Notes under the pieces: model-generated
The model's input: the letters and a program-made list of their open reading frames with translations, nothing else
Databases searched by the model: none
What the model was told of the DNA's origin: nothing
Position numbers and translations under genes: made by a program
DNA from: Escherichia coli
GTDB taxonomy: Bacteria > Pseudomonadota > Gammaproteobacteria > Enterobacterales > Enterobacteriaceae
Assembly (NCBI RefSeq): GCF_050920415.1
Contig: NZ_CP169309.1
Reading direction: 5' to 3' (one strand)
DNA length: 64,000 bases
Shown here: piece after piece, positions 11,512 to 60,324 of the stretch
Position numbering within the stretch: position 1 is the stretch's first letter
Layout: every line of letters starts with the position of its first letter

Positions 11512-11543
11512 TCATCCTGAAACTAAAATTATATGGTATAAAA

Positions 11544-12617: not shown

Positions 12618-12642
12618 GTTTTAACTCACTTCTTAAACTTGT

Positions 12643-13908
12643 CTATTCTTGATTAATAGTATTGTTGCGATTATTAATAACGAGTAAGAGGACTATAGCT
12701 GATATAACGATAATTGGAATGCTGCGTGCCCATATGATTACATCACTGAGTCCAATCCCCACTATGCCAAGCGTTAATATCAACAAACCCAATGCGCGTT
12801 TTTTATATGCTGTATAAAATAGTGAATAATAGAGGAAAAGGGTAGAAAAAATCCCCATCAGACCTTTTAGTGACGCTGCTTCAATTATCTCATTATGTAG
12901 GTGTACGTTAGAAAACTCCAATGCCCCTCTTAGCCTGTTGTGTTCTGCAACTAACAAATTCATACTTTCAGCGCGCGACTCTGCAGATCTAAATGAAAAA
13001 GGTGACTTTTTGAATATATCCAAACCAATTTCGTACATTGCCAGCCTTGCACCTAAGGAAGTCACGCTATTAGCATTGGTATAACTGTTTAAATCATTTA
13101 ATGCTTCATTATAGCGATTCTGTATTGGTTTATTAAATATAATTACAATACTCGCCAATATAGCAATTAGAAGAACAATAGCGGAAGTAAATTTCTTAGG
13201 TGATTTATTATAATAAGCTATTAATGTAACAGCACAAATTCCAGGAAACAGGAGTAGTGTTGCTCTGGTTTGTGTTAGTGCCAGAACATAAAGTACCGCG
13301 CAACTATTTAATAAAAATAAAAAAGGATGGTTCTTCTTAGTATAAAGAATCGCAACACCACTAACTATCCCTATTAGCATTGTTGAATATGCCGCTCCTG
13401 TTGCCGTTCCTACACCAAAAGAAATACGGTCATATTCATGAATGCTATTAATATACATTGCATATCCAGCAATTATAAATGACAGAGAATATAAAATGTA
13501 TAATACACTCTCTTTTTTATTTTTTAGCTGACTAGTTAGTGCTAAAAAAACAATAAAAGAACCAAATATAAATATTTTGGCAGTATTTAAATAACTATGG
13601 TAAGTAGCACGAAATGGCGAGTTATCTACTTTAAATATAGAATACCAAATTAAATCAAGCAAGCCTATAAAAAATATAGAAAGGGGCAGAATAATATTTT
13701 TTATATTGTAATTTCCTTGTCTGCCACGTAAAATTAGTGATAATAGGCAAACTATAGCAGTGATATTATATATCTTTATGCTGAAAGTGTTATCGACGAA
13801 TGCAATTATCAATGAAAGAAAACATAATATATAAGTTATTACCTCTAAAATCATAGATGATTTCAGAGTGTAAGGTTTCCATGAATGAAGTTTAATGAAG
13901 GTTGGCAT
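12643..13908 (-). CDS. waaL: O-antigen ligase, polytopic membrane protein, 421 aa
   Basis: Highly hydrophobic 421-aa ORF; position and orientation as waaL in the hldD-waaFCL operon. Confidence 0.85.
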   Translation of the reverse strand: MPTFIKLHSWKPYTLKSSMILEVITYILCFLSLIIAFVDNTFSIKIYNITAIVCLLSLILRGRQGNYNIKNIILPLSIFFIGLLDLIWYSIFKVDNSPFRATYHSYLNTAKIFIFGSFIVFLALTSQLKNKKESVLYILYSLSFIIAGYAMYINSIHEYDRISFGVGTATGAAYSTMLIGIVSGVAILYTKKNHPFLFLLNSCAVLYVLALTQTRATLLLFPGICAVTLIAYYNKSPKKFTSAIVLLIAILASIVIIFNKPIQNRYNEALNDLNSYTNANSVTSLGARLAMYEIGLDIFKKSPFSFRSAESRAESMNLLVAEHNRLRGALEFSNVHLHNEIIEAASLKGLMGIFSTLFLYYSLFYTAYKKRALGLLILTLGIVGIGLSDVIIWARSIPIIVISAIVLLLVINNRNNTINQE

Positions 13909-13917
13909 GTTTTACCT

Positions 13918-14877
13918 TTATAATGATGATAGTTTTTCCAAAACTGCTTGACCGTTGAGATTAATTAAACTTTTTCCCGGTGCCATGCAAACTACCTGAT
14001 TCTTCCCATACCCACCAATTAATCCCGGATCGGTAGGTCCATAAACCGTGATATTGGGTCTATCCAGTGCCGCCGTTAAATGGCTTAACCCCGTATCCAC
14101 CGACACCACAAATTTAGCGCCCGCCAGCACACGAGCAACGCCTTCCAGACTCATCTTCGGCAATACTTCAACATAAGCAAATCCTTCCGCCAGTCGTTTC
14201 GCCCGTTCTTCCTCATGCGGCGCGCCCCACGGAAGTTTAATCCGTATTCCTGAATCAGCCAGTAAACCAATCAATTCTCGCCAGTGTTCTTCCGGCCAGT
14301 GTTTATCATCACGGGTCGTCGCATGAAGAAATACGGCATATTCGCCAGCATCTGTAGGCAGGTTCGTCAGGAAATGCTGTGCGATAGCATAATCGCCCTG
14401 GGTTTGCGGTTTGCTATAGCCCAGACTTTTGGCAAACAGTTCGCGGGTGCGTTCTACGGCGTGCTGCTGTTTTGCAATATGATGCTTACGATTGTAAAAC
14501 AGGCTGGCTAAGGGTTCGCGAGCGGTTTGCCAGTCCATTCCATGCTTTACGCCATGCGCCAGACGCGTCACCAGCGCCGCGCTTTTTACCAGCCCCTGAG
14601 CGTCGATAACTGCGTCATAGTTCTCTGCTTGTAGCGCTTCACGAAACGCTTTGCGTTCAGCTTTTATGGGGGCCGAGAACCAGGCTTTACGCCAGCGACG
14701 TATTGCCACAGGAATAACTCGCTCAACGGCAGCGTGCCAGGAAGGAATCTGTGCGAACCCTTCTTCCACCACCCAGTCAAACTTAATCCCTGGGATTGCC
14801 TGCTGGGCATCAGTGAGTGCGGGCAGCGTATGGAGAACATCGCCCATCGACGATGTTTTAACGATCAGAACCCGCAT
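13918..14877 (-). CDS. waaC: LPS heptosyltransferase I, 319 aa
   Basis: MRVLIVKTSSMGDVLHTLPALTDA...; 319 aa. Confidence 0.9.
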   Translation of the reverse strand: MRVLIVKTSSMGDVLHTLPALTDAQQAIPGIKFDWVVEEGFAQIPSWHAAVERVIPVAIRRWRKAWFSAPIKAERKAFREALQAENYDAVIDAQGLVKSAALVTRLAHGVKHGMDWQTAREPLASLFYNRKHHIAKQQHAVERTRELFAKSLGYSKPQTQGDYAIAQHFLTNLPTDAGEYAVFLHATTRDDKHWPEEHWRELIGLLADSGIRIKLPWGAPHEEERAKRLAEGFAYVEVLPKMSLEGVARVLAGAKFVVSVDTGLSHLTAALDRPNITVYGPTDPGLIGGYGKNQVVCMAPGKSLINLNGQAVLEKLSSL

Positions 14878-14880
14878 CCG

Positions 14881-15927
14881 TCAGGTTTCCTCTTGTAACA
14901 ATAGCGCGTTGAGTTCTTCCAGTACGCGCTGGGGAGTAATGTCGATCAAGCTCTGGTGATAACCCTCCGCAGCGTCACCTTTACGCACTTTGTGATAGCC
15001 GGTAATCAGGCGGATCACGCGCGCTTTATGGGATAGTGGCGGTGTGAAGTCCGGGCTACTCGGACCATACAGGGCAACCAAAGGACGATTGAGCGCCGCC
15101 GCAACGTGCATCAGGCCAGAATCGTTAGTGACAATGGCTTTACAGGCTGCAATCAGGATAACTGCTTGATCAAGCTGTGTTTCCCCCGCCAGGTTCCGGC
15201 ACCATGCCTGCTGCTCGGTATTCAAAGCGGCAAGAATCTCATTGCCCGCTTCATGATCTTTCGCCGAGCCAAACAGAACCACCTGATAACCTTCATCAAT
15301 CAGCTGCTTTGCCAGCTCCGCATAGTGGTAGTGTGGCCAGCGTTTTGCCGGACCAAACTCCGCTCCGGGGCAAAAGCCAATCATCGGACGTTCTGATGAA
15401 AGCGAAAATTGATTACAGGTATATGATTTTTCACCTTCGCTCACCTGCAACTGCGGCCATAACAATGGCTGCGGCAGATCTTGTGCGGTACGCATAATGC
15501 CTTTGTCATAGGCCAGCGCGACATAGCGTTCCACCATTAGCGGCCAGGCTTCTTTATCGAGCACGCGTACATCGTTAAGTAAACCGTAGCGCATCTCGCC
15601 GCGCCAGCCGGTGCGATGAGGAATACCCGCGAAGAAAGGCACTAATGCGGACTTGAAGGAGTTGGGTAAGACGTAGGCGCGGTCGTAGCGCTTTTCACGC
15701 AGACTATGACCCAGTTTGCGGCGTTCGCCGATTTCCAGCGCTCCGTGACCGAGAGGCATAGGGATAGCTTCGTTAACTTCCGGCATCCGCGATAATAACG
15801 GACGGCACCATGCCGGTGCCATCACGTCGATTATCGCCTGGGGATAGCGCGCCTGGAGCGTGCGATAGAGACTTTGCGACATCATCATGTCGCCAACCCA
15901 AGACGGGCCGATCACCAGTATTTTCAT
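14881..15927 (-). CDS. waaF: LPS heptosyltransferase II, 348 aa
   Basis: MKILVIGPSWVGDMMMSQSLYRTL...; 348 aa. Confidence 0.9.
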   Translation of the reverse strand: MKILVIGPSWVGDMMMSQSLYRTLQARYPQAIIDVMAPAWCRPLLSRMPEVNEAIPMPLGHGALEIGERRKLGHSLREKRYDRAYVLPNSFKSALVPFFAGIPHRTGWRGEMRYGLLNDVRVLDKEAWPLMVERYVALAYDKGIMRTAQDLPQPLLWPQLQVSEGEKSYTCNQFSLSSERPMIGFCPGAEFGPAKRWPHYHYAELAKQLIDEGYQVVLFGSAKDHEAGNEILAALNTEQQAWCRNLAGETQLDQAVILIAACKAIVTNDSGLMHVAAALNRPLVALYGPSSPDFTPPLSHKARVIRLITGYHKVRKGDAAEGYHQSLIDITPQRVLEELNALLLQEET

Positions 15928-44616: not shown

Positions 44617-45195
44617 ATGGATCTGTTGATTGTTTTAACTTACGTGGCGCTGGCATGGGCGGTCTTTAAAATCTTCCGTATTCCGGTGAATCAGTGGACG
44701 CTGGCGACGGCGGCGCTGGGAGGCGTTTTTCTGGTAAGCGGTTTGATTTTGTTGATGAACTACAACCACCCTTACACTTTTACCGCACAGAAAGCGGTGA
44801 TTGCTATTCCCATCACGCCACAGGTGACGGGGATCGTGACTGAAGTCACTGACAAGAATAATCAGCTTATTCAGAAGGGCGAGGTGCTTTTTAAGCTCGA
44901 CCCGGTACGTTATCAGGCGCGAGTCGACAGACTTCAGGCTGACCTGATGACGGCGACGCATAATATAAAGACGCTGCGCGCGCAGCTCACTGAAGCGCAA
45001 GCCAATACCACCCAGGTTTCAGCGGAGCGTGACCGCTTGTTTAAAAATTATCAACGTTACCTGAAAGGCAGCCAGGCGGCGGTAAATCCGTTCTCAGAAC
45101 GTGATATCGACGATGCGCGGCAGAATTTTCTCGCGCAGGATGCGCTGGTGAAAGGTTCGGTGGCGGAACAGGCGCAAATCCAGAGCCAGCTCGAC
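44617..45195 (+). pseudogene. yibH: yibH 5' fragment (HlyD-family membrane fusion protein), 193 codons, interrupted by IS insertion
   Basis: [23 protein letters not shown]... reading frame runs into IS left end at 45196; the rest of the gene resumes at 47324. Confidence 0.85.
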
Positions 45196-45296
45196 TGTCA
45201 GCGCCAATGATATAAGACAGTAATTCACCATTTGGATTGTCCGCTCCACCCAACATGTTGTTTCCTTAAGGTTCCTACACCACAAAGGGAACACTC

Positions 45297-46343
45297 ATGC
45301 TGAGCAGAGAGGACTTTTACATGATAAAGCAAATGCGCCAGCAAGGTGCGTATATTGTTGATATTGCCACTCAGGTTGGTTGCTCTGAGCGGACTGTCAG
45401 ACGGTACCTGAAATACCCGGAACCTCCGGCCAGAAAAACACGCCACAAAATGGCCAAACTCAAGCCGTTCATGGACTATATCGACATGCGTCTGGCTGAG
45501 AATGTCTGGAACGGCGAGGTCATCCTGGCGGAAATCAAAGCGATGGGTTATACCGGTGGCCGTTCCATGTTGCGTTACTACATCCAGCCCAAACGTAAGA
45601 TGCGGCCATCGAAGAAAACGGTTCGCTTCGAAACTCAGCCCGGTTACCAGCTACAGCATGACTGGGGAGAAGTTGAGGCTGAGGTTGCCGGGCAACGATG
45701 CAGGGTTAACTTCGCGGTTAATACGCTGGGGTTCTCACGTCGCTTCCATGTCTTCGCGGCACCAAAGCAGGATGCTGAACATACCTATGAGTCACTGGTC
45801 CGCGCCTTTCGCTACTTCGGCGGCAGCGTGAAAACCGTGCTGGTCGATAACCAGAAAGCCGCAGTGCTGAAAAATAACAACGGGAAGGTGGTGTTCAACT
45901 CCGGGTTCCTGCTGCTGGCCGATCACTATGGCTTCCTGCCACGGGCCTGCCGTCCACGAAGGGCCAGAACCAAAGGTAAGGTGGAACGGATGGTGAAATA
46001 CCTCAAGGAAAACTTCTTCGTCCGGTACCGCCGGTTCGACAGCTTCGCCCATGTTAATCAGCTACTGGAGCAGTGGATGGCTGACGTTGCCGACAGGCGG
46101 GAACTTCGCCAGTTCAGGCAGACACCGGAACAGCGCTTCACGCAGGAACAGGTGCATCTGCAGGCGCTGCCAGGTACGGACTTCGATACCAGCTACTTCG
46201 ATATCCGTCATGTCTCCTGGGATGGCTATATCGAGGTTGGCGGGAACCGTTACAGCGTGCCGGAAAGCCTGTGTGGCCAGCCGGTATCAATACGGATCTC
46301 GCTGGATGATGAACTGCGATTTACAGTAATGAGCAACAGGTAG
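45297..46343 (+). pseudogene. istA: IS21-family transposase IstA, frameshifted near 3' end (348 aa as read; about 390 aa if the -1 shift around 46313-46343 is repaired, then ending at 46468)
   Basis: HTH N-terminus and integrase-core-like body; alternative frame open from 46313 to TGA at 46466-46468, which overlaps the istB ATG. Confidence 0.8.
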
Positions 46344-46455
46344 CATCGCACCGTCTCTGTTCGGCTGTATACGGCTGGCAGACCGTGCCGGAGCATCACG
46401 CCCCACTCTGGCAGCAGGTCAGTCAGGTGGAACACAGGCCGTTGAGTGCCTATGA

Positions 46456-47262
<807 letters not shown>

Positions 47263-47323: not shown

Positions 47324-47881
47324 AGTATGGTTAACGGTGAGCAGTCGCAGATTGTCAGCTTAAGGGCGCAGCTTACCGAAGCGAAATATAACCTTGAGCA
47401 GACCGTCATTCGCGCGCCGAGCAATGGCTACGTTACTCAGGTACTGATCCGCCCAGGTACATACGCAGCTGCCTTGCCGCTACGTCCGGTGATGGTTTTC
47501 ATCCCCGAGCAAAAACGGCAAATTGTCGCCCAATTTCGGCAGAACTCGCTGTTACGTCTGAAACCCGGCGATGATGCGGAAGTAGTGTTTAACGCGCTAC
47601 CTGGGCAGGTGTTCCACGGCAAACTGACTAGTATTTTACCTGTCGTGCCAGGTGGTTCGTATCAGGCGCAGGGGGTACTGCAATCATTAACCGTCGTACC
47701 CGGCACGGACGGTGTGCTGGGAACCATCGAACTGGACCCTAACGCTGATATCGATGCTTTACCCGACGGCATCTACGCCCAGGTGGCAGTTTACTCCGAC
47801 CATTTCAGCCATGTTTCGGTGATGCGGAAGGTGCTGCTAAGAATGACCAGTTGGATGCATTATCTTTATTTGGATCATTGA
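47324..47881 (+). pseudogene. yibH: yibH 3' fragment (185 codons); joins in-frame with 44617-45195 to give 378 aa once IS and TSD are removed
   Basis: ...[32 protein letters not shown]... typical HlyD/EmrA-like; frame arithmetic confirms. Confidence 0.85.
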
Positions 47882-48185
47882 GGGGGGCGGGGGAGATTAT
47901 GGAACTTTGCTCCTTGTAAGGACTAATTATTTTTGCATATTACTTCATTGGCTGCGATGATTTTTCTTTAATATTCATTAGGTTGAGAAGTTCTTGATGA
48001 GTGTGCTCTCATTGGATTTTTTATCCGTCTTGTTCTGCCGCAGGATCAGACTATACATCGTCGAGATCGCAATGATTATGAATTGTTCCTCTGCGACGAT
48101 GCTAATCAAAAAAGTGCTGGAGTGCTTTTCCATCTATTGCGATGATGGTTTTATTATCTGAAGAATGACAGTCACACATCCAGCT

Positions 48186-48457
48186 AATAAAGAACTCGTG
48201 AAATTTTCCAGGACTGATACAGGACACAACTCTGGTAATGATATCGTGAATAGGAATACCATATTAAAAATCACCATATTGCTTCAACAAATCGAGATGA
48301 GTCTCACCAGAATCCTCTATATCTTCCCATCCTTCAGCTCCGGAAATGATGGCGAAAATAATCAGCACTAGGATATCTGATAATTTATACTCTACTTTCC
48401 AGACTTGTCTGTAATCGGGACAGTAGAAATATGCTCCATTAATTTTTTAAGTTCCAT
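48186..48457 (-). pseudogene. H-repeat (ISAs1-family) transposase N-terminal fragment, degraded copy 1 (frameshift and in-frame stop)
   Basis: Begins ATG-GAA-CTT-AAA-AAA (MELKKLM...) like copy 2 at 50276-50572 but carries a 1-nt deletion and a stop. Confidence 0.7.
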
Positions 48458-48915
48458 TTTTTCTCCTTGTTTATGTAAGGAGTGTCTGAATATATATAAG
48501 CTATGAAAACACTTATTAAATAATAAGGGATATCTTGATTATTGGACATTTAGTGCTAATTGTTTAGTGCAAAAAATCGGCGTTATATGGTCTTTACCTT
48601 TATTACCCTTGCTGTTTTCCTCCAGCCTATGAAAAGCCAGCTTCAGTAAATCGTACCGCCCGAACATTGTAAGATACAATTTACTGACAACTTAGTACAT
48701 TATTAATATCACATTTAAGCTTTTTTTTCAGATTATAAAGCCTGTCCACTTTATAATCTTTGCAATTATAAACGTATTCTTTTTTTGTTTTCATATCAAT
48801 GACACTAACCCCTCGCATGTTACTACCGTTGTCGTAATTGCTAAACACGGAGTACTTATATCCACTTTGAATAAAACTAACGCTAAAGTAATCCGTTTGA
48901 AATCTGGAGTAATGA

Positions 48916-49128
48916 TTATAAAAAATCCTGAATACATTGGTCCATCTGAAATGAATTGAAATTTATCCCATGCTGACTATTCATTTCATAAATCAACGTT
49001 TCACCAAAACTTGTTAATGACAAAGTTCCTTTGGATGTATTACATAAAAAATAATTATTTCCTGCGTTTAGAGTCCAGGGAATTCCAGATAAAAAAATAA
49101 AAATTAATGCTCTATCTATATTGCTCAT
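48916..49128 (-). CDS. Small hypothetical protein (70 aa) with N-terminal hydrophobic segment; candidate immunity protein for the orphan muramidase-like toxin domain
   Basis: ORF start overlaps the stop of the orphan toxin ORF by 17 bp; MSNIDRALIFIFLSGIPWTLNAG... Confidence 0.35.
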   Translation of the reverse strand: MSNIDRALIFIFLSGIPWTLNAGNNYFLCNTSKGTLSLTSFGETLIYEMNSQHGINFNSFQMDQCIQDFL

Positions 49129-50276
49129 AATTAGCCCTTATTCTGTCATCATATCCTCGCTGACTTTGCCCATTATAACATAGAGCAAAGTTAAGCCAAT
49201 CTTTATCTCTAATAGCACGCAATAATACAGGATTAGATTTTATGAAGTTAATGAATGCCGCCAGATGGTTTTTCTCTGACTCTGAAATCGATATTATAAA
49301 CTCTTCGGGCGAAGAGTACCCGGCAGCTTGGTAATTTGAAGCCAATATCTGAAATTTACCCCACGATGCCGATTTAAGCGCAGCTTGCTTATCTAAAACA
49401 TATGCACGAAGTAATTTTTGATATTGCTCCGATCGTGTTCCATAACCGCCAGAACGGCTGTTGGAAATATCAGGTTGAGAATCATACACACCATTCGTAT
49501 ATCGATGGAAATGATGTCTTTCAAAAAGAATTGAGGGGACGTAATCATCTTCTTGTTCAAATTTAAAATAGCTACCGGAACTACCAGTTTCAGTTTTTGC
49601 AACAGCTTTAATTGCAGCCACTTCGCATTGTAGTGTCCTTGCAGCATTTTCATAGTCTGCATCATCAATGGTATCTCCGTTATAAAATCGTAAAAATTCC
49701 AATGGAATAAGTTCATTATTTACAGGAGTTTTTGGGTAATTGCTATTATTAATAGCATTCAAAAACACAACCGGATGAAAATGCCACACAGCATCATCAC
49801 TATTAAACGGAGACACCCCGCTCATCCACTCCAGATCCAGCTGCCACTTTTCACAGTATGCCACTTCCTCGGGTCCAGATCTTTATAAAACCCTTCCCAG
49901 CGTCCCGTCGAGCGACCGCCGTACCACTCGCTGTGGTGTCTGACTGTCAGACGATTCACCACATTTCTCACCAGTGGTTCACGCACGGTCAGCGCCTGTC
50001 TGATCTCTTCCTCCGTCACTTTTCCATCACCGTCCTGATCCATACCCGCCATCAGCTCACGATAAAAGGGCGGTACCTGCTCATACAGCCACTCATCTCC
50101 CTGTTCTGCGGCACGGCTTATTGAGTCAAACGCTTCCGGCACCCATCCTTCGTACGGGCTGTACGTCATGTCACCGCTGCTGTTCTCCTCCAGCGGCTGA
50201 AAACCCAGCTTCAGTAAATCATACTGTCCGGCCTCTTCAACATCCTTCTGTGGCAGCCAGCCGGTTCCGGTGATAT
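49112..50276 (-). pseudogene. Displaced (orphan) effector 3' module: shared pre-toxin region with EF-hand loop plus a distinct C-terminal N-acetylmuramidase-like domain; 5'-truncated and carrying a 1-nt frameshift near 49866
   Basis: 49764-50276 is near-identical to 52116-52630 of the full-length effector; downstream domain has ...FERHHFHRYT... and ...SWGKFQILASNY... motifs; no start codon; two overlapping ORFs (49822-50391, 49112-49864). Confidence 0.75.
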
Positions 50277-50572
50277 TAAGCCGCCTCTGGTTTCCTTTTA
50301 ATAAAGCACTCGTGAAATTTTGCAGGACTGATACAGGATACAACTCTGGCAATGGTATCGTGAACAGGAATACCATTATCAAAATCACCATATTGCTTCA
50401 AAAAATCGAGATGTGTTTCCCCAAAATCCTCTATATCTTCCCAGCCTTCTGCACCCGAAATAACGGCACAAATAGTCAACAGTAGAATATCCGATAATTT
50501 ATGTTGCACTTTCCAGGCTTGTCTGTAATCGGGGATAATAGAAATATGTCCCATCAATTTTTTAAGTTCCAT
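50276..50572 (-). pseudogene. H-repeat (ISAs1-family) transposase N-terminal fragment, copy 2 (about 92 codons then truncated)
   Basis: [64 protein letters not shown]... matches the start of E. coli H-rpt proteins, then loses homology. Confidence 0.8.
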
Positions 50573-50873
50573 TTTGTTCTCCTTAATTATGTAAGGAGTA
50601 TTTGATCATGTATAAGCAATAAAAAACAGCTTTAGGTAATGAGGAATATCTCAATTTTCAAACATAAAATGCGAATTGTCTAGTACAAAAAAGCAGCGTT
50701 ACGTGATCTTTCCCTGCCTGCCTGTACGATATCCCTCAAAAATAATTTTCCAGTCAGTTATTCATGTCTAACTTAAAATCATAAAACATTTAAATTAATA
50801 ATAAACAAATTCAACCTAGTCGCATTATTATTTTAATAACACAGCATCGATTTCATAAAAAACTGCACAATGG

Positions 50874-51284
50874 TCATCCAGTCCATTTGCAATCAGTACC
50901 ATCATCATTATATGCCTCAATATTTTCTTCAAACTCAGTTGTTTTCCCACTTATTGATTTATAATGAAACAAATTAAATCTTGCACCTTGTGTGGAAACA
51001 ACATACAACCCATTAATTTTTCCATTTACAACCTCGCTCCATGCATAAGAAAATTCAGAAGGCCTGTCATCGAAAGTCACTTCTAATTTATTTATAAACG
51101 CAAGAGGTATAAATTTTGAGGATTTCTCATAAATCACATAACCTAAAAAAATATCGCCAGACGATATTTCAACAAACTTTAAATTTGTTTTCCCAGCGCT
51201 AAAACAGCCTACCGTTGTTTGTTGTTTAGCCAATAAACAACAAGGCACCAAACAAAACAGTAAAACCAATAAGTTAACTTTCAT
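50874..51284 (-). CDS. Candidate immunity protein (136 aa, cleavable signal peptide) for the upstream GH19-like effector
   Basis: MKVNLLVLLFCLVPCCLLA...; 5 bp downstream of effector stop; small secreted protein. Confidence 0.55.
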   Translation of the reverse strand: MKVNLLVLLFCLVPCCLLAKQQTTVGCFSAGKTNLKFVEISSGDIFLGYVIYEKSSKFIPLAFINKLEVTFDDRPSEFSYAWSEVVNGKINGLYVVSTQGARFNLFHYKSISGKTTEFEENIEAYNDDGTDCKWTG

Positions 51285-51289
51285 ATCAA

Positions 51290-53779
51290 TTACTCCAGTT
51301 CAGTTATTCGTCTCTCTACAAATGTGGATATATTCCTTTTTTCTATTCCATATACTTTTCTATCACCCTCACGCCCTTCCTGAGGAAACGGATGCAGGTC
51401 AATTAATTCTTTCGCCCTTCTATAACCTTTTAATGCTTCTTCGTTACTCTTGATCGTCCCTCTTCGGGAGCTATCAGGATCATGCCATATCCCCCATCCC
51501 AAAGCATATACTTTATTATCATATACGTCACTATCATCAAACAAGAAATCGTCGTTCATTGCTTTCTGATTTAAATGCTCGGCAGCAAGTGAGGTAACCA
51601 ATTTATTAAATATCGACAACCGTTCATCATAATGATTATACCCTCCATTAATCACTGCTGTAATTTTATTAAAATCATCATTTTTAGCATCTTCATTTAT
51701 TCTTTTGAATATATTGAAATACCAAAACGCAGATAATACGCAATGTGGGGAGGATATAAGTTTATCTCTTGCGGAATCTGAAGATGTTACGTCCTCATTG
51801 ATATATTCCCCATAGGCGGTGTAATTACTTTCCCCTGTAACTTGTATTAAGCCTCGGCCATACCACGGACTATATGAAGCTGATTCACCATTAATTTCTT
51901 TGGTATATCTAAAATAACCGCTCTCGTGAATAATTTGAGCAAGAAAATGGGCTTTTTCTCTACAAGTGGTCATACCAAACCGAATAAACCCTGCATTTAT
52001 ATCGTAGAGGTACCTTTTGAGAAGACCTTCACTTACTGCAGGAGCAACTTTTTTTAATTCATCTAATGTTATATCTCTGTTGCAAGCACACACAGATTTG
52101 GAATTAATAGCGTCCAAAAACACAACCGGATGAAAATGCCACACAGCATCATCACTATTAAACGGAGATACCCCGCTCATCCACTCCAGATCCAGCTGCC
52201 ACTTCTCACAGTATGCCACTTCCTCTGTGTCCAGATCTTTATAAAATCCTTCCCACCGCCCTGTCGAGCGCCCTCCGTACCATTCGCTGTGGTGTTTAAC
52301 TATCAGATGATTCACCACATTTCTCACCAGTGGTTCACGCACGGTCAGCGCCTGTCTGATCTCTTCCTCCGTCACTTTTCCATCACCGTCCTGATCCATA
52401 CCCGCCATCAGCTCACGATAAAAGGGCGGTACCTGCTCATACAGCCACTCATCTCCCTGTTCTGCGGCACGGCTTATTGAGTCAAACGCTTCCGGCACCC
52501 ATCCTTCGTACGGGCTGTACGTCATGTCACCGCTGCTGTTCTCCTCCAGCGGTTGAAAACCCAGCTTCAGTAAATCATACTGTCCGGCCTCTTCAACATC
52601 CTTTTGTGGCAGCCAGCCGGTTCCGGTGATATTAAACCACCACTGCTGCGATTCATCCGTGATCGGTGTCGTGGCTTCCCGCGGAAGAACGCGCTGAGCA
52701 CCCAGTGTGGCTGCGGTTGCGGTAAATACCTCCTGTCCCGGAACGGCCTGCCGGGTGTATAAAATTATCCCTTTTGGTGCCAGAACAGTCCGTTTTTCTC
52801 CCTTAACGCCTGCCGGGTTGGATAAGAACTTTGGCATATTCGGGTCTGTACTCAGAACCTCCAGATGGACGAACCACTCGCGCTCAATCTCACCGCTTCC
52901 CTCGCCAGGATAATCCTCGCATCCCATAAATCCGACCGGTGTTCCGGCACTGACTTTCCACTCTTCCGTTTCGTCGACCGTCTGTACCGAGTCAAAAATG
53001 CCTTTTGCCTTCGCCTTCTGCATCCACTCAGGCATCAGCATCTGTATTTCGCCATCTGACTCCATCAGATCCGGATCCAGGGTCACCCAGTACTGCTCAT
53101 TCCCCGGTTTATTGCCTTCCAGCAGGCGAACCAGTCCGAATGTCGTCAGGACCGGCTGGCCGTTATTGGTCACGTAAAAACGTCCGGTCCGGGATGACAC
53201 AAACCGATCTCCCGCATTAAGTGTCCTGTTTCCGCTGATTTTCGGGGGTATCCAGTACGTGGCATGATCTCCGCTTTCCTGCCCCTCGGGAAGGCCGTTC
53301 TTTCCCGGGATGTATCGGTGCAGCAATATGCCACCATGCCCGGTTTTAACTTTATAGCAGGGGGAGCCGGGATAATCGTTCACCGGGGCCAGATGCATAT
53401 AGAGACAGTAAAATTCCAGCCAGCTTTCTTTTTTTTGCGGGTCTGGCTGGCACTGCGATTTCACCAGAACAAATGTGCTGCTGTAACGGAGTTGCTGCCC
53501 TTTGTAGGTGCCTTTCAGGTAATCATTATTTATCCGGTACGCCGCAATGGTGCCATCGGCCATAAACTGAAGAGGAACCGGTTCTCCGGTAGCGGCGGTA
53601 TCCGGTTTCAGGGCTGATAACGGATTAGACACGTCACTGATATGTATCCCGCCGTGCCACAGCCCGTTTCCACCCAGCAGCCAGGTTCCGTGCGCTTCTT
53701 TGTCAATAAGCCGCATTATCTCATCCAGCGAGCGAAACTCTTTGCCTTCTTTATCCCTGATGGGATGGCTGATTTTCAT
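51290..53779 (-). CDS. VgrG-linked candidate T6SS effector, 829 aa: N-terminal domain of unknown function, central EF-hand-like Ca-binding loop, C-terminal GH19/lysozyme-like peptidoglycan hydrolase domain
   Basis: 9 bp downstream of vgrG stop; DQDGDGKVTEEE loop; C-terminal ...AHFLAQIIHESGYFRYTKE...YGRGLIQVTGESNYTAYG...LSAFWYFN... resembling the GH19 / COG3179 signature. Confidence 0.7.
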   Translation of the reverse strand: MKISHPIRDKEGKEFRSLDEIMRLIDKEAHGTWLLGGNGLWHGGIHISDVSNPLSALKPDTAATGEPVPLQFMADGTIAAYRINNDYLKGTYKGQQLRYSSTFVLVKSQCQPDPQKKESWLEFYCLYMHLAPVNDYPGSPCYKVKTGHGGILLHRYIPGKNGLPEGQESGDHATYWIPPKISGNRTLNAGDRFVSSRTGRFYVTNNGQPVLTTFGLVRLLEGNKPGNEQYWVTLDPDLMESDGEIQMLMPEWMQKAKAKGIFDSVQTVDETEEWKVSAGTPVGFMGCEDYPGEGSGEIEREWFVHLEVLSTDPNMPKFLSNPAGVKGEKRTVLAPKGIILYTRQAVPGQEVFTATAATLGAQRVLPREATTPITDESQQWWFNITGTGWLPQKDVEEAGQYDLLKLGFQPLEENSSGDMTYSPYEGWVPEAFDSISRAAEQGDEWLYEQVPPFYRELMAGMDQDGDGKVTEEEIRQALTVREPLVRNVVNHLIVKHHSEWYGGRSTGRWEGFYKDLDTEEVAYCEKWQLDLEWMSGVSPFNSDDAVWHFHPVVFLDAINSKSVCACNRDITLDELKKVAPAVSEGLLKRYLYDINAGFIRFGMTTCREKAHFLAQIIHESGYFRYTKEINGESASYSPWYGRGLIQVTGESNYTAYGEYINEDVTSSDSARDKLISSPHCVLSAFWYFNIFKRINEDAKNDDFNKITAVINGGYNHYDERLSIFNKLVTSLAAEHLNQKAMNDDFLFDDSDVYDNKVYALGWGIWHDPDSSRRGTIKSNEEALKGYRRAKELIDLHPFPQEGREGDRKVYGIEKRNISTFVERRITELE

Positions 53780-53788
53780 GTTCAGTCC

Positions 53789-55990
53789 TTATCGTGAGAA
53801 TCTTCCCGGCCGTTGTGGCGGTACCTTATCCTGCTGGGGAGGATCAAAGGCTTCCTGTACATTTTTCCGTGGTGGCTCCGCCCCTTCAGTTCCAGGTCCG
53901 CCATTGTCATAATCTGCCAGCGCTTTCAAAACCGCCGGTCGTAGTGTCGGCACCGGCGTTCCCGGACTACCGCCGCTATTGAGATTGATTTTCGGCCCGA
54001 CGATGTCCACGCCCCCTGAATGGATGACCACAAACGAACCACCCACCTTCAGGGTGATTTTACCGCCACTCTCCAGTACGATTTCATCCCGGACCTTCAT
54101 TCCCAGCGCACCGGTAATCTTCCTCGCCAGGTCGCCCTTCACCTCCAGACTGTGCGTTCCCTCCACCAGACTGATATGGTTCCCCGTCGTCTTATGCTCC
54201 TGCTTCCCTTCCACCGTCACTTTACGGTCGTTTCTGACATACAGGCCGTCATCGTGACTCACGCTCACCGTCCGGTCATTCGTCACCTTCAGCGTCTGGT
54301 CATTACGTACCGTTATGCGCCGGTCGTTCGCCACCGTGATACTCTGGTCGTGGCCCCCTTCTTTTCTGGTGCCGACCTCAACCGTCTGCCCCTTCACCAC
54401 CCTTATCTTCTGGTCGTTACCGATGGTCTCCGTATGGTCATGCTTCACGTCCGTCGTCCGGTCGTTAAGCACCTCCGTGTCCATGTTCTTCTGCGCGTGG
54501 ATATACACCTGCTCACTGTCCGTCGCATCCTCGAAACGCAGTTCATTAAAGCCGCTTCCTTTATAGGTCTTCGAGCGGATGGTCATCTGCGTCCGCGTGC
54601 CCGGTAAATCCCCCGGTGAACGGTTATCTTCATGGTAGGTCCGCCCCGTCACAATGGGCTGGTCCGGGTCGCCGTTCAGAAAGTCCACTATCACTTCCTG
54701 ACCCACACGCGGTATCGCCAGATTGCCGAACCCCGGTCCCGCCCATGCCTGCGACACCCGTATCCAGCATGAACTCTCCTCCGTCATCCCGTGATAACGG
54801 TCCCAGTGAAACTTCACCCGTACCCGGCCATGCTCGTCGCAGAATATCTCCTCGCCCTTCGGCCCGGTCACGATGGCACTCTGCGGGCCGTCCACCTTCG
54901 GCTTCGGCAGGGGCTGTGAGCGCCAGGTCCGGTCTGCCGGGATGACCGTGATATGGTTACTCAGTGTCGTTCCCCTCCCCTGGCTCCCGTGCAGCGCCTG
55001 CGGCTGGCTCCCCGTCAGCGTGCTGCTCACCACCTGCCACTCACGGTTCGGGTTCGCTCCCTGTACCGGATGCCCCGTCAGGGTGAACCGCCGTCCCGGC
55101 CACAGCGCCGGGGAGTTACTGATACCTGTGGCGGTTTCAGCACTGTTACGCAGCCCTTCCAGCCGGTAGCGGGTAAAGTCCTGACCATGCTGCTCGTCCT
55201 TGTAGCGCCCCGGCCAGTCCAGGATTTTGTACTGCTTCAGTTGCTCGTTGAGGTTTTCAGCATCCTCAATGTAAATACCCGGCCAGTCCGGCACCTTAAA
55301 CGTGTGGTCTTTTGAACGCACCTGCGAGGGCCGCACCTGCGCCTGGTAGCGGAACAGGCTGATGCACGCCGTCGTCACCTCACGGGTGTTCGGGTTAAAC
55401 GGTATCTCCCCGTACACCGGCAGGCCCGCCACATCATCGCACAGCGTGAGCGTCTGCTCCGGGCTGTCGTCAGCGTATCTGTCATAAAAGAAGATGCCTT
55501 CCTCCGCCCACAGCCGGGTCAGAAACGCCAGGTCGCTTTCACCGTACTGGACGCAGAACTCCCGTGCCGGGTGGCTCTCATAAAAGCGCGGCGTCCACTG
55601 CGTCACTCCGTCCTCGTTTAACAGCGTGGCGGAGATGGCCTGAATGTCCTGCTGCTGGAAGATTCGGTAGTTCTGCCGCAGCCCGCTGCGCCACAGGGGC
55701 GGGCGTATCTGAAGGTGGTACTGCATCTGCCAGCCGTTGTGCTCCTTCATGCCTAACCCCGACACCACACCGCTCACATAACGCAGCGCCGTGCCACCCT
55801 GCCAGATGGTCAGCACGGCCCCCTTCTCCAGCAGCTTCTCCGCCGTCTGGCGGAACGAGTCGCTGGCAACGTCCACATCCAGGACGAACGGCGATGAGTA
55901 TGCCTGCGTGAGGCGGAAATCCACCACCGCGAACGTCTCCGGCACCAGTCCGTCCACCGTCAGCGTAAAACGCAGCCCTTTTAATGACAT
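53789..55990 (-). CDS. vgrG: T6SS spike protein VgrG (copy B), 733 aa
   Basis: MSLKGLRFTLTVDGL...; gp27/gp5-like regions (...GQEVIVDFLNGDPDQPIVTGRTYH...) and C-terminal beta-helix repeats (VKHDHTETIG...ITVANDRRITVRNDQTLKVTNDRTVSV...). Confidence 0.9.
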   Translation of the reverse strand: MSLKGLRFTLTVDGLVPETFAVVDFRLTQAYSSPFVLDVDVASDSFRQTAEKLLEKGAVLTIWQGGTALRYVSGVVSGLGMKEHNGWQMQYHLQIRPPLWRSGLRQNYRIFQQQDIQAISATLLNEDGVTQWTPRFYESHPAREFCVQYGESDLAFLTRLWAEEGIFFYDRYADDSPEQTLTLCDDVAGLPVYGEIPFNPNTREVTTACISLFRYQAQVRPSQVRSKDHTFKVPDWPGIYIEDAENLNEQLKQYKILDWPGRYKDEQHGQDFTRYRLEGLRNSAETATGISNSPALWPGRRFTLTGHPVQGANPNREWQVVSSTLTGSQPQALHGSQGRGTTLSNHITVIPADRTWRSQPLPKPKVDGPQSAIVTGPKGEEIFCDEHGRVRVKFHWDRYHGMTEESSCWIRVSQAWAGPGFGNLAIPRVGQEVIVDFLNGDPDQPIVTGRTYHEDNRSPGDLPGTRTQMTIRSKTYKGSGFNELRFEDATDSEQVYIHAQKNMDTEVLNDRTTDVKHDHTETIGNDQKIRVVKGQTVEVGTRKEGGHDQSITVANDRRITVRNDQTLKVTNDRTVSVSHDDGLYVRNDRKVTVEGKQEHKTTGNHISLVEGTHSLEVKGDLARKITGALGMKVRDEIVLESGGKITLKVGGSFVVIHSGGVDIVGPKINLNSGGSPGTPVPTLRPAVLKALADYDNGGPGTEGAEPPRKNVQEAFDPPQQDKVPPQRPGRFSR
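54085..54930. repeat. About 0.85-kb block near-identical to 58422-59267 (internal vgrG segment shared by both paralogs, offset 4337 bp)
   Basis: Antisense ORFs 54020-54607 and 54616-54945 are letter-identical to parts of 58204-58944 and 58953-59534; VgrG proteins identical over about 270 residues. Confidence 0.85.
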
Positions 55991-56145
55991 GATGACCTCC
56001 CTGGTATTGCTACAGGAAAAAGTAATTAACCGATATTGACCGTACCTTCTGATATTCTCTCACTGATTCATTATCTGTATTTCCCATGAACATTCTCATT
56101 TCAACAGGAAAACCAACGAATTGTAGCCATGACAATAAGTTAACA

Positions 56146-57075
56146 TTAATAATTCCTCAACGAATAAGGAGGAGATGCCCTGTCCCCATCAATAGTAACC
56201 ACGACCTGATTTGATCTTATTTTGAATATATTATCATTACCGCCATGATAGCCAAATCGTGCTAAAAAATCCTGAAATAGACCAGGTCCTCTATAAGGTC
56301 CACAGATTCTCCAAACCCGCCACTCCTCTATGCCATACGTTATTTTATCTATAGGATTAGTACACTCTCTTTCTGCCCGCCAGTTCATAATAGAAAGAAA
56401 ATACTCATATATATATTGTTCTGCAAACCACTCTTGATTAACTATTGTAAATTCTACCGTCCCTATATTATAACGATGAATGCCCGGTAAAAAGGCATAA
56501 TAATCGTTCAATGTGACATCAAAGGATAGCTCTTTCCCTGGTAATATCTCGCGCCAAACAGATTTACTTTTCCATTCACCAAAGCTACATTTTGTTTTTT
56601 TTAAAAAATCCAACTGAATGTTATCCATTATCGGTATAAACACACCACTACACAAGGAAGAGTAAGGCCCGCCGTTAACGTCAAGAGGAAGAGTTAGTCG
56701 ATGAACAAAATAAGATCCCTGGCTTTTATTCGATAAAACCACTGCAGCTGCTACAATATTTTCTTTCTGATGCACGGAAAGATGAAGATATATTTTATTT
56801 TTATCCTGATTATACTGACTCTCATTTTTACTGATAGTATAATATTGAAAAACAGCATAGGCTGAAAGATCATCATAATAATCATAATAATTAAGCCTTG
56901 TCGGTTCTACACGAGGATAGACACCAAGTTTTTCCATTACTCCATTCCAATGTAACTTCCCATATCTGTAATGAACCGCATAATCGCCAGAGATATCATA
57001 AGCAAATATTGGATGCACCCAAGAAAAAAAAGCAATAAAAACAATCCATCTAGCAAGCATATACTCCCCCGTCAA
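56146..57075 (-). CDS. Candidate immunity protein (309 aa, N-terminal signal peptide) for the upstream HExxH effector
   Basis: MLARWIVFIAFFSWVHPIFAYD... signal peptide; 9 bp downstream of the metallopeptidase-like gene; Trp/Tyr-rich. Confidence 0.5.
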   Translation of the reverse strand: MTGEYMLARWIVFIAFFSWVHPIFAYDISGDYAVHYRYGKLHWNGVMEKLGVYPRVEPTRLNYYDYYDDLSAYAVFQYYTISKNESQYNQDKNKIYLHLSVHQKENIVAAAVVLSNKSQGSYFVHRLTLPLDVNGGPYSSLCSGVFIPIMDNIQLDFLKKTKCSFGEWKSKSVWREILPGKELSFDVTLNDYYAFLPGIHRYNIGTVEFTIVNQEWFAEQYIYEYFLSIMNWRAERECTNPIDKITYGIEEWRVWRICGPYRGPGLFQDFLARFGYHGGNDNIFKIRSNQVVVTIDGDRASPPYSLRNY

Positions 57076-57084
57076 ATAAAAGCA

Positions 57085-57930
57085 TCAATATGGTACAGGA
57101 ATCTCGAAATAACGTTCGATATTATATGCATTCTGAAACAGTTCTGATTTTTTATCATTTTTTAATTTAGTGGCATGAGCAATATATTCGTCACCTGTAC
57201 TATACTCTATATCTACCGGCATATCTTCCGTCCACATGCCTCCAAACTTAAGTGAATCCCCGTACCTTATAAAGTGAGATAGTTCATGGCAGAGTGTCGA
57301 TGCCTTAGAGTTTTCCCCAGTGAATGGCCTATCTATAAATCTTTGTCCTATAGTTATACTTACCAAACTTTTAAAGCTTCCAGATTTTACACCCAAAATC
57401 TGATCGTAAGTTACATTGGCAGCATAAGCGTCATTATCTGTACAATTCACAAAGTTACCAATTTTGGGCCTGATTACGTCTTTGTCAACATATTCATTAC
57501 CCCCTTTGTCATTAAGAACAAGATTACAATTGGCATCACGTTTGAGGAAATGGTCATGAACGGTAACGTCTACACAATCACCTTCCACAGATAATTCCCC
57601 ACATATCTCATACAGGCGAGTAACGCCATTTCTCATATAATCCCTTGCCTTTATATTCTCTGTAAACAGAGTATTACGCCCCCCGAAAGGGAACTTTAAT
57701 TTAATATAAGTATTTCCATCAATGCCAAATATATTTATAAATTCCTGATTTTGTTCCGCCCCCCATTTATCACCAAGATCTTCTACTCTTTTTTTCAATA
57801 CAGCCATCTGCGCCTTCAGAGCCTCTCTCATCATTATTTTAAAATCATTAGTAATTTTCCCCTCCTTTAAAACTACACACTGTTCACCACTCTGGCTTTT
57901 TCCGCTCGTACTACCCTTTTCATCTCCCAT
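57085..57930 (-). CDS. VgrG-linked candidate effector, 281 aa, with HExxH zinc-metallopeptidase motif (TLCHELSHF)
   Basis: Follows vgrG copy A by 81 bp; HELSH motif in C-terminal third; no signal peptide. Confidence 0.6.
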   Translation of the reverse strand: MGDEKGSTSGKSQSGEQCVVLKEGKITNDFKIMMREALKAQMAVLKKRVEDLGDKWGAEQNQEFINIFGIDGNTYIKLKFPFGGRNTLFTENIKARDYMRNGVTRLYEICGELSVEGDCVDVTVHDHFLKRDANCNLVLNDKGGNEYVDKDVIRPKIGNFVNCTDNDAYAANVTYDQILGVKSGSFKSLVSITIGQRFIDRPFTGENSKASTLCHELSHFIRYGDSLKFGGMWTEDMPVDIEYSTGDEYIAHATKLKNDKKSELFQNAYNIERYFEIPVPY

Positions 57931-58011
57931 ATAAATCCTCCTTGGTATATATTTTCACTACAAACCCTGTTCCATTTATGCAAAAACACGCCAATTACAG
58001 GCGGTCACTCT

Positions 58012-60324
58012 CTATTCATTAATCCCTCCCCATATCATATCGATATTCAAATGCAACAATCTGACGTCTATTGTCTGCTCGCTGTCAGTGGTGAATATTT
58101 CCGTATACCCATCCTTATCCGTTTCTCCGCGGGTCTGCGTGCCGTCCTCAAAGAAGGCAATGTAGCGTGTCTCTGAATACGGTATCCCGTCATCGTCTGT
58201 AAAATGGAACTGGAGAGTATATTTTTCAGGGTTCTCATCATCATTCTCATCCTCCAGCGCCTCCAGTACAACCGGTTGCAGCGTCGATACTGGCGTCCCC
58301 GGACCTCCCCCACCATTCAGGTTTATCTTCGGCCCCACTATATCCACGCCGCCAGAGTGTATCACCACGAACGAACCGCCCGCTTTCAGGCTTATCTGGC
58401 TGCTGCTCTCCAGCACGATATCCCCGTCCACCTTTATCCCCAGCGCGCCACTCACCTTCTCCGCCAGGTCACCCTTCACCTCCAGGCTGTGTTTCCCCTC
58501 CACCAGGCTGATATGGTTTCCCGTCGTCTTATGCTCCTGCTTCCCTTCCACCGTCACTTTACGGTCGTTTCTGACATACAGGCCGTCATCGTGACTCACG
58601 CTCACCGTCCGGTCATTCGTCACCTTCAGCGTCTGGTCATTACGTACCGTTATGCGCCGGTCGTTCGCCACCGTGATACTCTGGTCGTGACCCCCTTCTT
58701 TTCTGGTGCCGACCTCAACCGTCTGCCCCTTCACCACCCTTATCTTCTGGTCGTTACCGATGGTCTCCGTATGGTCATGCTTCACGTCCGTCGTCCGGTC
58801 GTTAAGCACCTCCGTGTCCATGTTCTTCTGCGCGTGGATATACACCTGCTCACTGTCCGTCGCATCCTCGAAACGCAGTTCATTAAAGCCGCTTCCTTTA
58901 TAGGTCTTCGAGCGGATGGTCATCTGCGTCCGCGTGCCCGGTAAATCCCCCGGTGAACGGTTATCTTCATGGTAGGTCCGCCCCGTCACAATGGGCTGGT
59001 CCGGGTCGCCGTTCAGAAAGTCCACTATCACTTCCTGACCCACACGCGGTATCGCCAGATTGCCGAACCCCGGTCCCGCCCATGCCTGCGACACCCGTAT
59101 CCAGCATGAACTCTCCTCCGTCATCCCGTGATAACGGTCCCAGTGAAACTTCACCCGTACCCGGCCATGCTCGTCGCAGAATATCTCCTCACCCTTCGGC
59201 CCGGTCACGATGGCACTCTGCGGGCCGTCCACCTTCGGCTTCGGCAGCGGCGCGTGACGCCACGTCCTGTCTGCCGGTATCACCTCAAACTGATTGCTCA
59301 GTGTCGTCCCTTCACCGTGACTCCCGTGCAGCGCCTGCGGCTGTTCTCCCCGCAGTGTGCTTCCCACAACCTGCCATTCCCGGTTCAGCGTCGCTGACGG
59401 ATGGCCCGTCAGCCGGAACCGCGTTCCCGGCCACAGCCGCGCCGTGTTACACACCCCGCTCGCCGTCTCCGCCCCGTTCCGCCACCCTTCCGTCTGGTAA
59501 CGCGCAAAATCCTGGCCATGCTGCTCATCCTTGAAACGCCCCGGATAATCAAATATCTCGTACTGCGTTCCCTGTCCGTTCAGGCTCTCCCCGTCATGGC
59601 TGTAGTACCCCGGCCACCCCGGCGTTTTGAACGTATAATCCTGCGTCTCCACCGACGCCACGCTTATCTGCGCACGGTAACGGAAGTCGCGGATGTACTC
59701 TGTCGTGCCTCCGGTCGTGGTATTCGGGTTAAACGCCAGCGCCCCCATTCCCGTCAGCCCCGCCACGTCATCACACACCGCCAGCTTCTGTTCCGGCCCG
59801 TCCTGACTGCAGCGTTCATAAAAGAAGATACCTTCCTCCGCCCACAGCCGGGTCAGGAATGTCAGGTCGCTCTCCCCGTACTGCACGCAGAACTCCCGCG
59901 CCGGGTGCGCCTCATAGAACAGCGGCATCCACGCCGTCACCCCGTTCTCTTCAAGAAGCTGCGCTGATATCGTCTGAATGTCCTGCTGCTGGAAGATACG
60001 GAAGTTCTGCCGTAACCCTGCCCGCCACAGCGGCGGGCTGATGCTCAGGGAATAACGCATCTGCCAGTCGTTGTTCTCACCGAGCTGCACCTCTGTCACG
60101 ATACCGCTGACGTAACGCTGTGCAGTGTCGCCCTGCCAGACCGTCAGCACCGCGCTTTTCTCCAGAAAATCTTCTGCCGTCAGGTCAGACAGTCCGCTGG
60201 CGATATCCACATCCAGGATGAACGGTGTGCAGTGGTGCTGGTACAGACGGAAGCTCACCACCGCCGTCGCCATCTCCACAATACCGTCCACCGACAGCGT
60301 GAAACGTAATCCTTCTGCTGCCAT
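58012..60324 (-). CDS. vgrG: T6SS spike protein VgrG (copy A) with about 100-aa C-terminal extension, 770 aa from MAAEGLRFTL (the ORF in the track starts 11 codons upstream)
   Basis: Same domain order as copy B; extra C-terminal tail ...EKYTLQFHFTDDDGIPYSETRYIAFFEDGTQTRGETDKDGYTEIFTTDSEQTIDVRLL... Confidence 0.9.
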   Translation of the reverse strand: MAAEGLRFTLSVDGIVEMATAVVSFRLYQHHCTPFILDVDIASGLSDLTAEDFLEKSAVLTVWQGDTAQRYVSGIVTEVQLGENNDWQMRYSLSISPPLWRAGLRQNFRIFQQQDIQTISAQLLEENGVTAWMPLFYEAHPAREFCVQYGESDLTFLTRLWAEEGIFFYERCSQDGPEQKLAVCDDVAGLTGMGALAFNPNTTTGGTTEYIRDFRYRAQISVASVETQDYTFKTPGWPGYYSHDGESLNGQGTQYEIFDYPGRFKDEQHGQDFARYQTEGWRNGAETASGVCNTARLWPGTRFRLTGHPSATLNREWQVVGSTLRGEQPQALHGSHGEGTTLSNQFEVIPADRTWRHAPLPKPKVDGPQSAIVTGPKGEEIFCDEHGRVRVKFHWDRYHGMTEESSCWIRVSQAWAGPGFGNLAIPRVGQEVIVDFLNGDPDQPIVTGRTYHEDNRSPGDLPGTRTQMTIRSKTYKGSGFNELRFEDATDSEQVYIHAQKNMDTEVLNDRTTDVKHDHTETIGNDQKIRVVKGQTVEVGTRKEGGHDQSITVANDRRITVRNDQTLKVTNDRTVSVSHDDGLYVRNDRKVTVEGKQEHKTTGNHISLVEGKHSLEVKGDLAEKVSGALGIKVDGDIVLESSSQISLKAGGSFVVIHSGGVDIVGPKINLNGGGGPGTPVSTLQPVVLEALEDENDDENPEKYTLQFHFTDDDGIPYSETRYIAFFEDGTQTRGETDKDGYTEIFTTDSEQTIDVRLLHLNIDMIWGGINE

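Follow-up and report, generated by a model that had tools for sequence, protein, structure and literature searches.

An orphan muramidase-immunity cassette beside a WHIX-class T6SS cargo effector in Escherichia coli, probably left by C-terminal displacement

A region downstream of a T6SS cargo effector gene in Escherichia coli is very probably what C-terminal displacement of a polymorphic WHIX-class effector has left in place: an orphan toxin-immunity cassette. It was found in a 64-kb window, the whole stretch of DNA analyzed here, from the chromosome of E. coli MFDS1022581. The orphan combines the end of a WHIX region with a toxin domain that differs from that of its neighbor, and is followed by a predicted immunity gene. 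An intact version of the same toxin and immunity gene exists at the same locus in another E. coli. A preliminary description of this DNA had proposed a toxin-switching architecture on a VgrG cargo effector. The architecture stands, but a usable switch in this strain does not: judging from its sequence, the cassette is a decaying, non-functional relic.

All genes of interest are on the minus strand, in an island bounded by yibF and yibH (Table 1). We take this position to be the one that rhsA occupies on the K-12 map. In gene orientation, the island contains a vgrG, an M35-like toxin gene, a partner gene, a second vgrG and the gene of the 829-aa main effector. These are followed by a 136-aa gene, an ISAs1/H-rpt fragment (H-rpt1), the orphan (49112-50391), a degraded small gene, a short relic and a second ISAs1 fragment (H-rpt2), which adjoins yibH. 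The second vgrG, whose product is presumably the carrier of the main effector, is adjacent to the effector gene. The 136-aa gene is presumed to be the immunity gene of the GH19 domain. The WHIX/TseP-like identity of the main effector, the immunity gene at 48681-49128, and the 77-nt relic with the second H-rpt fragment beyond it were absent from the preliminary description.

Table 1. Positions of the island features in the window, listed in gene orientation.
Feature	Positions	Strand	Basis or remark
vgrG (TssI), spike protein	53789-55990	-	TIGR03361, E 7.5e-177; annotated tssI
Main effector, 829 aa, WP_000703217.1: WHIX-class N-domain, EF-hand, GH19/TseP-C-like lysozyme C-terminus	51290-53779	-	
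Main-gene pre-toxin stretch duplicated in the orphan	52103-52645	-	Pairwise alignment
136-aa gene with hydrophobic N-terminus, presumed immunity to the GH19 domain	50874-51284	-	Position; retained beside the effector gene in both N96 and RMDEC465
H-rpt1: ISAs1 left end plus ~420 nt, then 27 nt of IS interior, joined to the orphan	50274-50716	-	
Pre-toxin region of the orphan, from the C-terminal part of the WHIX domain	49753-50279	-	Alignment; no start codon of its own; 1-nt deletion
Orphan toxin domain, PF11860 N-acetylmuramidase	49112-49756	-	Pfam, PDB matches, alignment
Predicted cognate immunity gene of the muramidase, pseudogene here	48681-49128	-	149 aa in RMDEC465 and N96
Third pre-toxin copy, more divergent, reduced to a 77-nt relic (YDLLKLAFHRLEENSKG)	48586-48662	-	Abuts the next IS end
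H-rpt2: second ISAs1 5' fragment, 82% identical to H-rpt1; island end adjoining yibH	47961-48599	-	

Two other parts of the window differ from strains RMDEC465 or N96. The HlyD-family gene yibH is interrupted by the IS21-family element ISEc62 at 45297-47262, with yibH flanks at 44617-45210 and 47327-47881. The istB of ISEc62 is annotated as frameshifted, and yibH is uninterrupted in RMDEC465 and N96. Downstream of the other vgrG, the region 56146-57930 holds two genes: one is HELSH metallopeptidase-like (281 aa), and the product of the other (~300 aa) has a hydrophobic N-terminus. These are parted by one stop codon, which is Leu in N96, where RefSeq has a single 594-aa M35 metalloendopeptidase. 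An effector-immunity pair is the probable reading, with read-through as the cause of the fusion in N96. Poor assembly was considered as the source of both the M35 gene split and the frameshifts described below, and was rejected: 11 kb contain no indels relative to N96, and a stop/Leu substitution accounts for the M35 difference.

[quoted passage not shown] Its N-terminus contains W41-H-G-G-I-H46, the WHxxxH motif of the first WHIX region, and the protein is listed in the sequence and tree files (supplementary files 8 and 28) that accompany the WHIX study (Fridman et al., PLoS Biol 2025, PMC12135965). In that study, WHIX effectors are polymorphic T6SS cargo effectors named for the WHxxxH motif. 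Their N-domain is reported there to cap the VgrG C-terminal tail, and their C-terminal extensions to be mostly peptidoglycan-targeting. The C-terminal domain of the main effector resembles GH19-type endolysins and the TseP-C structure 8XCL (E 5.8e-8 and 3e-9). Proteins 50-99% identical to the main effector in the N-domain end in GH19, PF11860, GH108, M23 plus phage lysozyme, pesticin-like or CHAP domains. Comparison of homologues gave at least six C-terminal domain types in the family, all of them after the fixed junction VWHFHPVxFLDA. Because the effector belongs to the published WHIX class and is TseP-like, this polymorphism is already described. The effector, the orphan and both immunity proteins were searched against NCBIfam, and none was assigned to a family. 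RMDEC465 has the WHIX N-domain a second time (99.6% identical), at a distant locus (NZ_CM177019.1, 1610838-1611977), where it is annotated ‘glycoside hydrolase family protein’.

The orphan repeats an internal stretch of the main gene. Pairwise alignment of orphan 50289-49748 with main-gene 52645-52103 gave 521 identical positions out of 542 and a single 1-nt gap, in agreement with the near-identity previously described for 49764-50276 and 52116-52630. The core repeat (50279-49753, 527 nt) starts at main-gene codon ~408 and is located downstream of the main gene. Its 5' 327 nt contain two mismatches (99.4% identical), and its 3' 200 nt contain 15 mismatches and the deletion (~92%). The similarity ends after GCTATTAA (...HPVVFL(D/N)AIN), at the start of the catalytic domain as had been claimed. 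The orphan covers the last ~150 residues of the WHIX region (main-gene residues ~408-559) and has neither a start codon nor the WHxxxH region. By its homology to the main gene alone, the fragment would belong to the WHIX class. The EF-hand (main-gene residues 455-479) is located within the repeat, as the preliminary description had noted, and is also present in the orphan.

The gap in the alignment is a base deleted between orphan 49873 and 49872, the counterpart of main-gene 52228. Because of this deletion, the orphan is divided into two ORFs, both found as first reported. The first (49822-50391, 189 aa) holds the EF-hand loop MDQDGDGKVTEEEI. The second (49112-49864) encodes 250 aa. Pfam assigned residues 81-249 of the latter to PF11860 Muramidase (model positions 1-174 of 175, E 6.5e-46), as against the GH19-like domain of the main gene, which substantiates the earlier suggestion of an unrelated N-acetylmuramidase-like domain. 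PF11860 is not the lysozyme family of TseP-C. Endolysin structures in the PDB matched the same ORF (7Q4S, E 6.7e-31; 5NM7; 7RUM). The Glu of a K(A/V)V.K.E motif is invariant in our alignment A3 and is placed opposite a Glu in 7Q4S, which makes it a candidate catalytic residue. The orphan carries a complete N-acetylmuramidase domain, with predicted enzymatic activity. The cassette starts at (Y/F)P.T.VN and also forms the C-terminal end of a Vibrio cholerae VgrG, with 69% identity. Because it is found there as well, the muramidase cassette moves between different T6SS delivery scaffolds. The Vibrio cholerae protein (P0029/P0031) is an evolved VgrG with a PG_binding_1 domain, and the cassette boundary FPMTLVNGEL... 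is unchanged in it.

Directly downstream of the toxin, and overlapping its stop codon, is a gene whose product in RMDEC465 and N96 is 149 aa long and has a signal-peptide-like N-terminus. In Salmonella arizonae and contig L004, the genes of full-length muramidase effectors are followed by those of homologues of this protein, 48% identical to it. Muramidase and immunity protein co-occur at ~50% and 48% identity, respectively, in Salmonella arizonae, Enterobacter and L004. Such co-occurrence is as expected of a toxin-immunity pair, and the 149-aa protein is a predicted immunity protein of the muramidase. In the window, 1-nt deletions at 48967/48966 and 48926/48925 create two frameshifts in this gene. 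Both are located in short homopolymer runs and are unique to the window assembly. They could reflect true decay or residual sequencing errors, in an assembly that otherwise contains no indel relative to N96 over 11 kb.

The upstream junction of the orphan is made by an ISAs1 remnant, so the earlier observation of a gene cut by an H-rpt fragment and lacking a start codon holds. H-rpt1 covers the ISAs1 left end and transposase codons 1 to ~89. The rest of the IS is deleted, and the remnant is annotated as a partial ISAs1 family transposase. The joint is composite: the IS left end with ~420 nt is followed by 27 nt of IS interior (the AVKGNQGRL region, 92.6%) and then by effector sequence. The 16 nt upstream of 50276 (CCAGAGGCGGCT), 12 of which align with the main gene, were considered as divergent effector sequence. 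This was rejected, as intact ISAs1 identifies them as IS interior, and their similarity to the main gene is at most microhomology at the joint. The composite joint is common to three strains and is identical in RMDEC465. The truncation of the orphan is therefore old and precedes the divergence of these strains.

The ISAs1 remnants also suggest exchange between IS copies. In RMDEC465, a full ISAs1 is located next to the GH19 immunity gene, and H-rpt1 matches it with 98.6% identity over 583 nt (~420 nt of IS). H-rpt1 is less similar, at 92%, to the fragment that forms the identical joint of the orphan in the same strain, which suggests an IS-IS exchange at the locus. The 77-nt relic is located directly against the left end of H-rpt2. 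There are accordingly two independent joints between IS and pre-toxin sequence, at main-gene codons ~408 and ~440, and the distance between them in effector coordinates is ~100 nt. Upstream of H-rpt1, a pre-toxin relic like the one upstream of H-rpt2 was looked for and not found. In RMDEC465 (L002), the interval between the GH19 immunity gene and the orphan (11202-15051) holds an extra module. It consists of a full ISAs1 and a vgrG fragment, together with genes for an S-type pyocin-domain protein and for bacteriocin immunity. The arrangement in the window could have arisen from that of RMDEC465 via IS-IS recombination, or the reverse. In the window, as in RMDEC465 and E. whittamii, each module boundary terminates in an ISAs1 left end. 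ISAs1/H-rpt elements might then be more than incidental debris and serve as portable right-hand homology for exchange and stacking of vgrG-WHIX effector-immunity units at the Escherichia rhsA/yibH site, with orphan WHIX cassettes as a widespread and occasionally reactivated toxin reserve of Enterobacterales. We regard this broader proposal as speculative and rather unlikely.

The WHIX N-domain of the main gene was found in exactly 3 of 5,426 complete E. coli genomes, and all three have the orphan. In RMDEC465, the toxin and immunity frames of the orphan are both open, and a 237-aa form is annotated. N96 has an IS66 insertion in the toxin domain besides the frameshift, and its immunity gene is intact. 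A homologue search with the repaired orphan returned no close full-length relative, only versions with 49-55% identity. The close relative, P0122, surfaced only in a search with the N-domain. Its contig (L069; E. coli read set DRR244934) contains, in this order, a 767-aa effector gene, a 145-aa immunity gene, a stretch of ~800 nt and yibH-yibI-mtlADR. Its identity to the window main gene over the N-domain is 98.07%. To the orphan, immunity gene, relic, H-rpt2 and yibH of the window it is 97.98%, and the only gaps there include the three frameshifts. All 15 SNPs that set the 3' pre-toxin segment of the orphan apart from the main gene match the DRR244934 allele. DRR244934 thus has an intact muramidase allele with its immunity gene at the same yibH-side locus, and the muramidase domain on a full-length effector, suggested in the preliminary description as something to look for, does exist in the species.

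Related versions are found in other species. E. whittamii has a colinear full-length version beside a vgrG 3' fragment and an intact ISAs1, with many stop codons and a 13-nt deletion. The Salmonella arizonae (770 aa) and Enterobacter asburiae (769 aa) versions are intact and have a more distant N-domain (33% identity for S. arizonae, the one compared). Similar orphans, composed of a truncated WHIX region, PF11860 and a small downstream gene, are present in Lelliottia amnigena and Providencia. The Lelliottia amnigena orphan is located inside a complete T6SS cluster (L070, 3697-10861). This segment encodes a VgrG, a 766-aa WHIX effector with a faint pesticin match, an LprI-like immunity protein, PAAR and two further proteins, then a 467-aa 5'-truncated WHIX and PF11860 orphan and a 164-aa protein. 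The architecture is the same, without IS.

These comparisons suggest how the cassette may have formed. An older allele at the yibF/yibH locus would have combined the WHIX N-domain with the muramidase and a periplasmic immunity protein. A unit of vgrG, GH19 effector, immunity gene and ISAs1 would later have taken the upstream position. An ISAs1-associated deletion may then have stripped the old gene of its first ~407 codons (5' 1.2 kb). This loss would leave it without a start codon and without the WHxxxH half of the VgrG-loading domain, and for that reason without delivery. What remained would be the 527-nt direct repeat, an alternative toxin domain and its immunity gene. We infer the order of events from parsimony. 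The history must be more complex than a single step, because RMDEC465 has the extra module with the vgrG fragment and pyocin between the main gene and the orphan.

The direct repeat could in principle support a RecA-type deletion of 2.35 kb. This would restore a muramidase effector of 770 aa at the cost of the GH19 domain, the GH19 immunity gene and H-rpt1. In silico, a crossover 3' of the frameshift gave an uninterrupted 770-aa protein of natural length, and a crossover 5' of it led to a stop at residue 533. Because of the toxin frameshift, the productive crossover window is only ~120 nt. A few SNPs are shared between main and orphan copies in a patchy manner, which hints at past conversion between them.

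The possibility of rebuilding raises the question of whether the cassette is a live reserve weapon. Recombination at the repeat would then regularly yield muramidase-armed variants that outcompete their parents, as was reportedly shown for orphan Rhs in Salmonella. The direct repeats, 96% identical, on the same strand and 2.35 kb apart, speak for this. The intact in silico product, the patchy SNP sharing, and the open toxin frame and intact immunity gene of RMDEC465 also point in this direction. However, crossovers must fall in the last ~120 nt to avoid the frameshift, and the longest perfect tracts are only 35 and 54 nt. Recombinants would moreover poison their siblings, because the immunity gene is broken twice. 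Together with the additional IS66 insertion in the toxin domain of N96, this pattern indicates decay over maintenance. We consider a live reserve improbable here, and a displaced cassette in decay the better reading.

It is still less probable that the 250-aa ORF (the 237-aa form in RMDEC465) is an independent muramidase gene, such as a stray endolysin or a housekeeping lytic enzyme with no tie to the T6SS. RefSeq names the product an N-acetylmuramidase family protein, and its nearest solved structures are from phage endolysins. However, the ORF has no phage context around it and no export signal of its own, and its start is located inside sequence 92-99% identical to the effector pre-toxin region. 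The same domain and upstream junction end 767-770-aa VgrG-linked effectors and the Vibrio cholerae VgrG. The co-varying signal-peptide protein that follows is typical of immunity genes.

The cassette is also not explained by assembly or sequencing errors. The independent assembly of N96 is gap-free relative to the window over 49245-60300 (11,056 nt, 7 mismatches), the frameshift site included, and both encode the same split product, WP_001361050.1. The extra base is present in RMDEC465, DRR244934 and E. whittamii. The toxin frameshift is therefore real, since N96 has the same deletion and split product. Three single-base deletions in 1 kb, two of them in homopolymer runs, do resemble long-read errors, but with the same architecture in three independent complete genomes, the identical frameshift in N96 and an old non-redundant accession for the split product, an artefactual repeat and frameshift can hardly be credited.

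C-terminal displacement and orphan toxin/immunity cassettes were reportedly described for Rhs and CdiA loci by Jackson in 2009, and orphan Rhs activation in Salmonella by Koskiniemi in 2014. Similar to the Rhs and CdiA orphans, the region here has a 5'-truncated conserved piece, an unrelated toxin domain and an immunity gene, downstream of the main gene and in the same orientation. It is also flanked by H-rpt/ISAs1 remnants, recombination between its repeats could rebuild a full-length gene, and its site is presumably that of rhsA in K-12. Unlike in those systems, the carrier appears to be a WHIX cargo effector loaded non-covalently on VgrG, with no Rhs/YD-repeat or CdiA protein. The junction is VWHFHPVxFLDA, compared with PxxxxDPxGL or VENN. 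The toxins are predicted to hydrolyse peptidoglycan in the periplasm, and their immunity proteins carry signal peptides. Two papers (PMC5361080; PMC9796082) cite the Rhs and CdiA orphans as known.

Closer relatives are found among VgrG-loaded effectors. The main gene is in the WHIX dataset and shares with the effectors described there the WHxxxH motif, a position next to vgrG and a peptidoglycan-targeting C-terminus. The C-terminal repertoire seen here (GH19, pesticin-like, lysozyme-like) is the one reported for WHIX effectors (PMC12135965). Unlike those effectors, the orphan lacks the first WHIX region. In the part of that paper's text used here, orphan C-terminal/immunity cassettes are not described, the word ‘recombination’ is absent, and ‘orphan’ refers to effectors far from T6SS genes. 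Similar to TseP of Aeromonas dhakensis (Wang et al., eLife 2025, PMC11893102), the main gene encodes a VgrG-linked effector of ~830 aa, in which a large N-domain and a predicted EF-hand are combined with a C-terminal lysozyme that matches 8XCL, and is followed by a presumed immunity gene. In sequence, this likeness was compared over the C-domain. The orphan toxin domain, unlike TseP, belongs to a different family, PF11860. The part of the TseP text used here likewise describes no orphan cassettes or recombination. What the two studies, on WHIX and on TseP, establish is that the effectors are polymorphic and modular in their domains.

In Vibrio cholerae T6SS clusters, cargo effector-immunity modules are displaced sequentially (Kirchberger et al. 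2017, PMC5361080). As in our locus, incoming modules displace older effectors, and old immunity genes, sometimes with effector 3' ends, stay downstream. Unlike the Vibrio cholerae arrays, which mostly keep immunity genes only, the locus described here keeps a complete toxin domain and 527 nt of recombinogenic homology, with IS remnants at the joints.

C-terminal displacement is well known for Rhs/CDI and has been inferred for Vibrio cholerae. The cassette involves no new mechanism, and its biology is expected and not surprising. What it does is extend turnover by orphan cassettes and C-terminal displacement to the WHIX class of VgrG-loaded, peptidoglycan-targeting effectors. The strains also provide natural states for comparison: an intact allele (DRR244934), an orphan with open frames (RMDEC465) and two independent decays (the window strain and N96). 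Together, these form a compact system for the study of kin protection against an old toxin by kept immunity genes, and of the rate at which unused cassettes decay.
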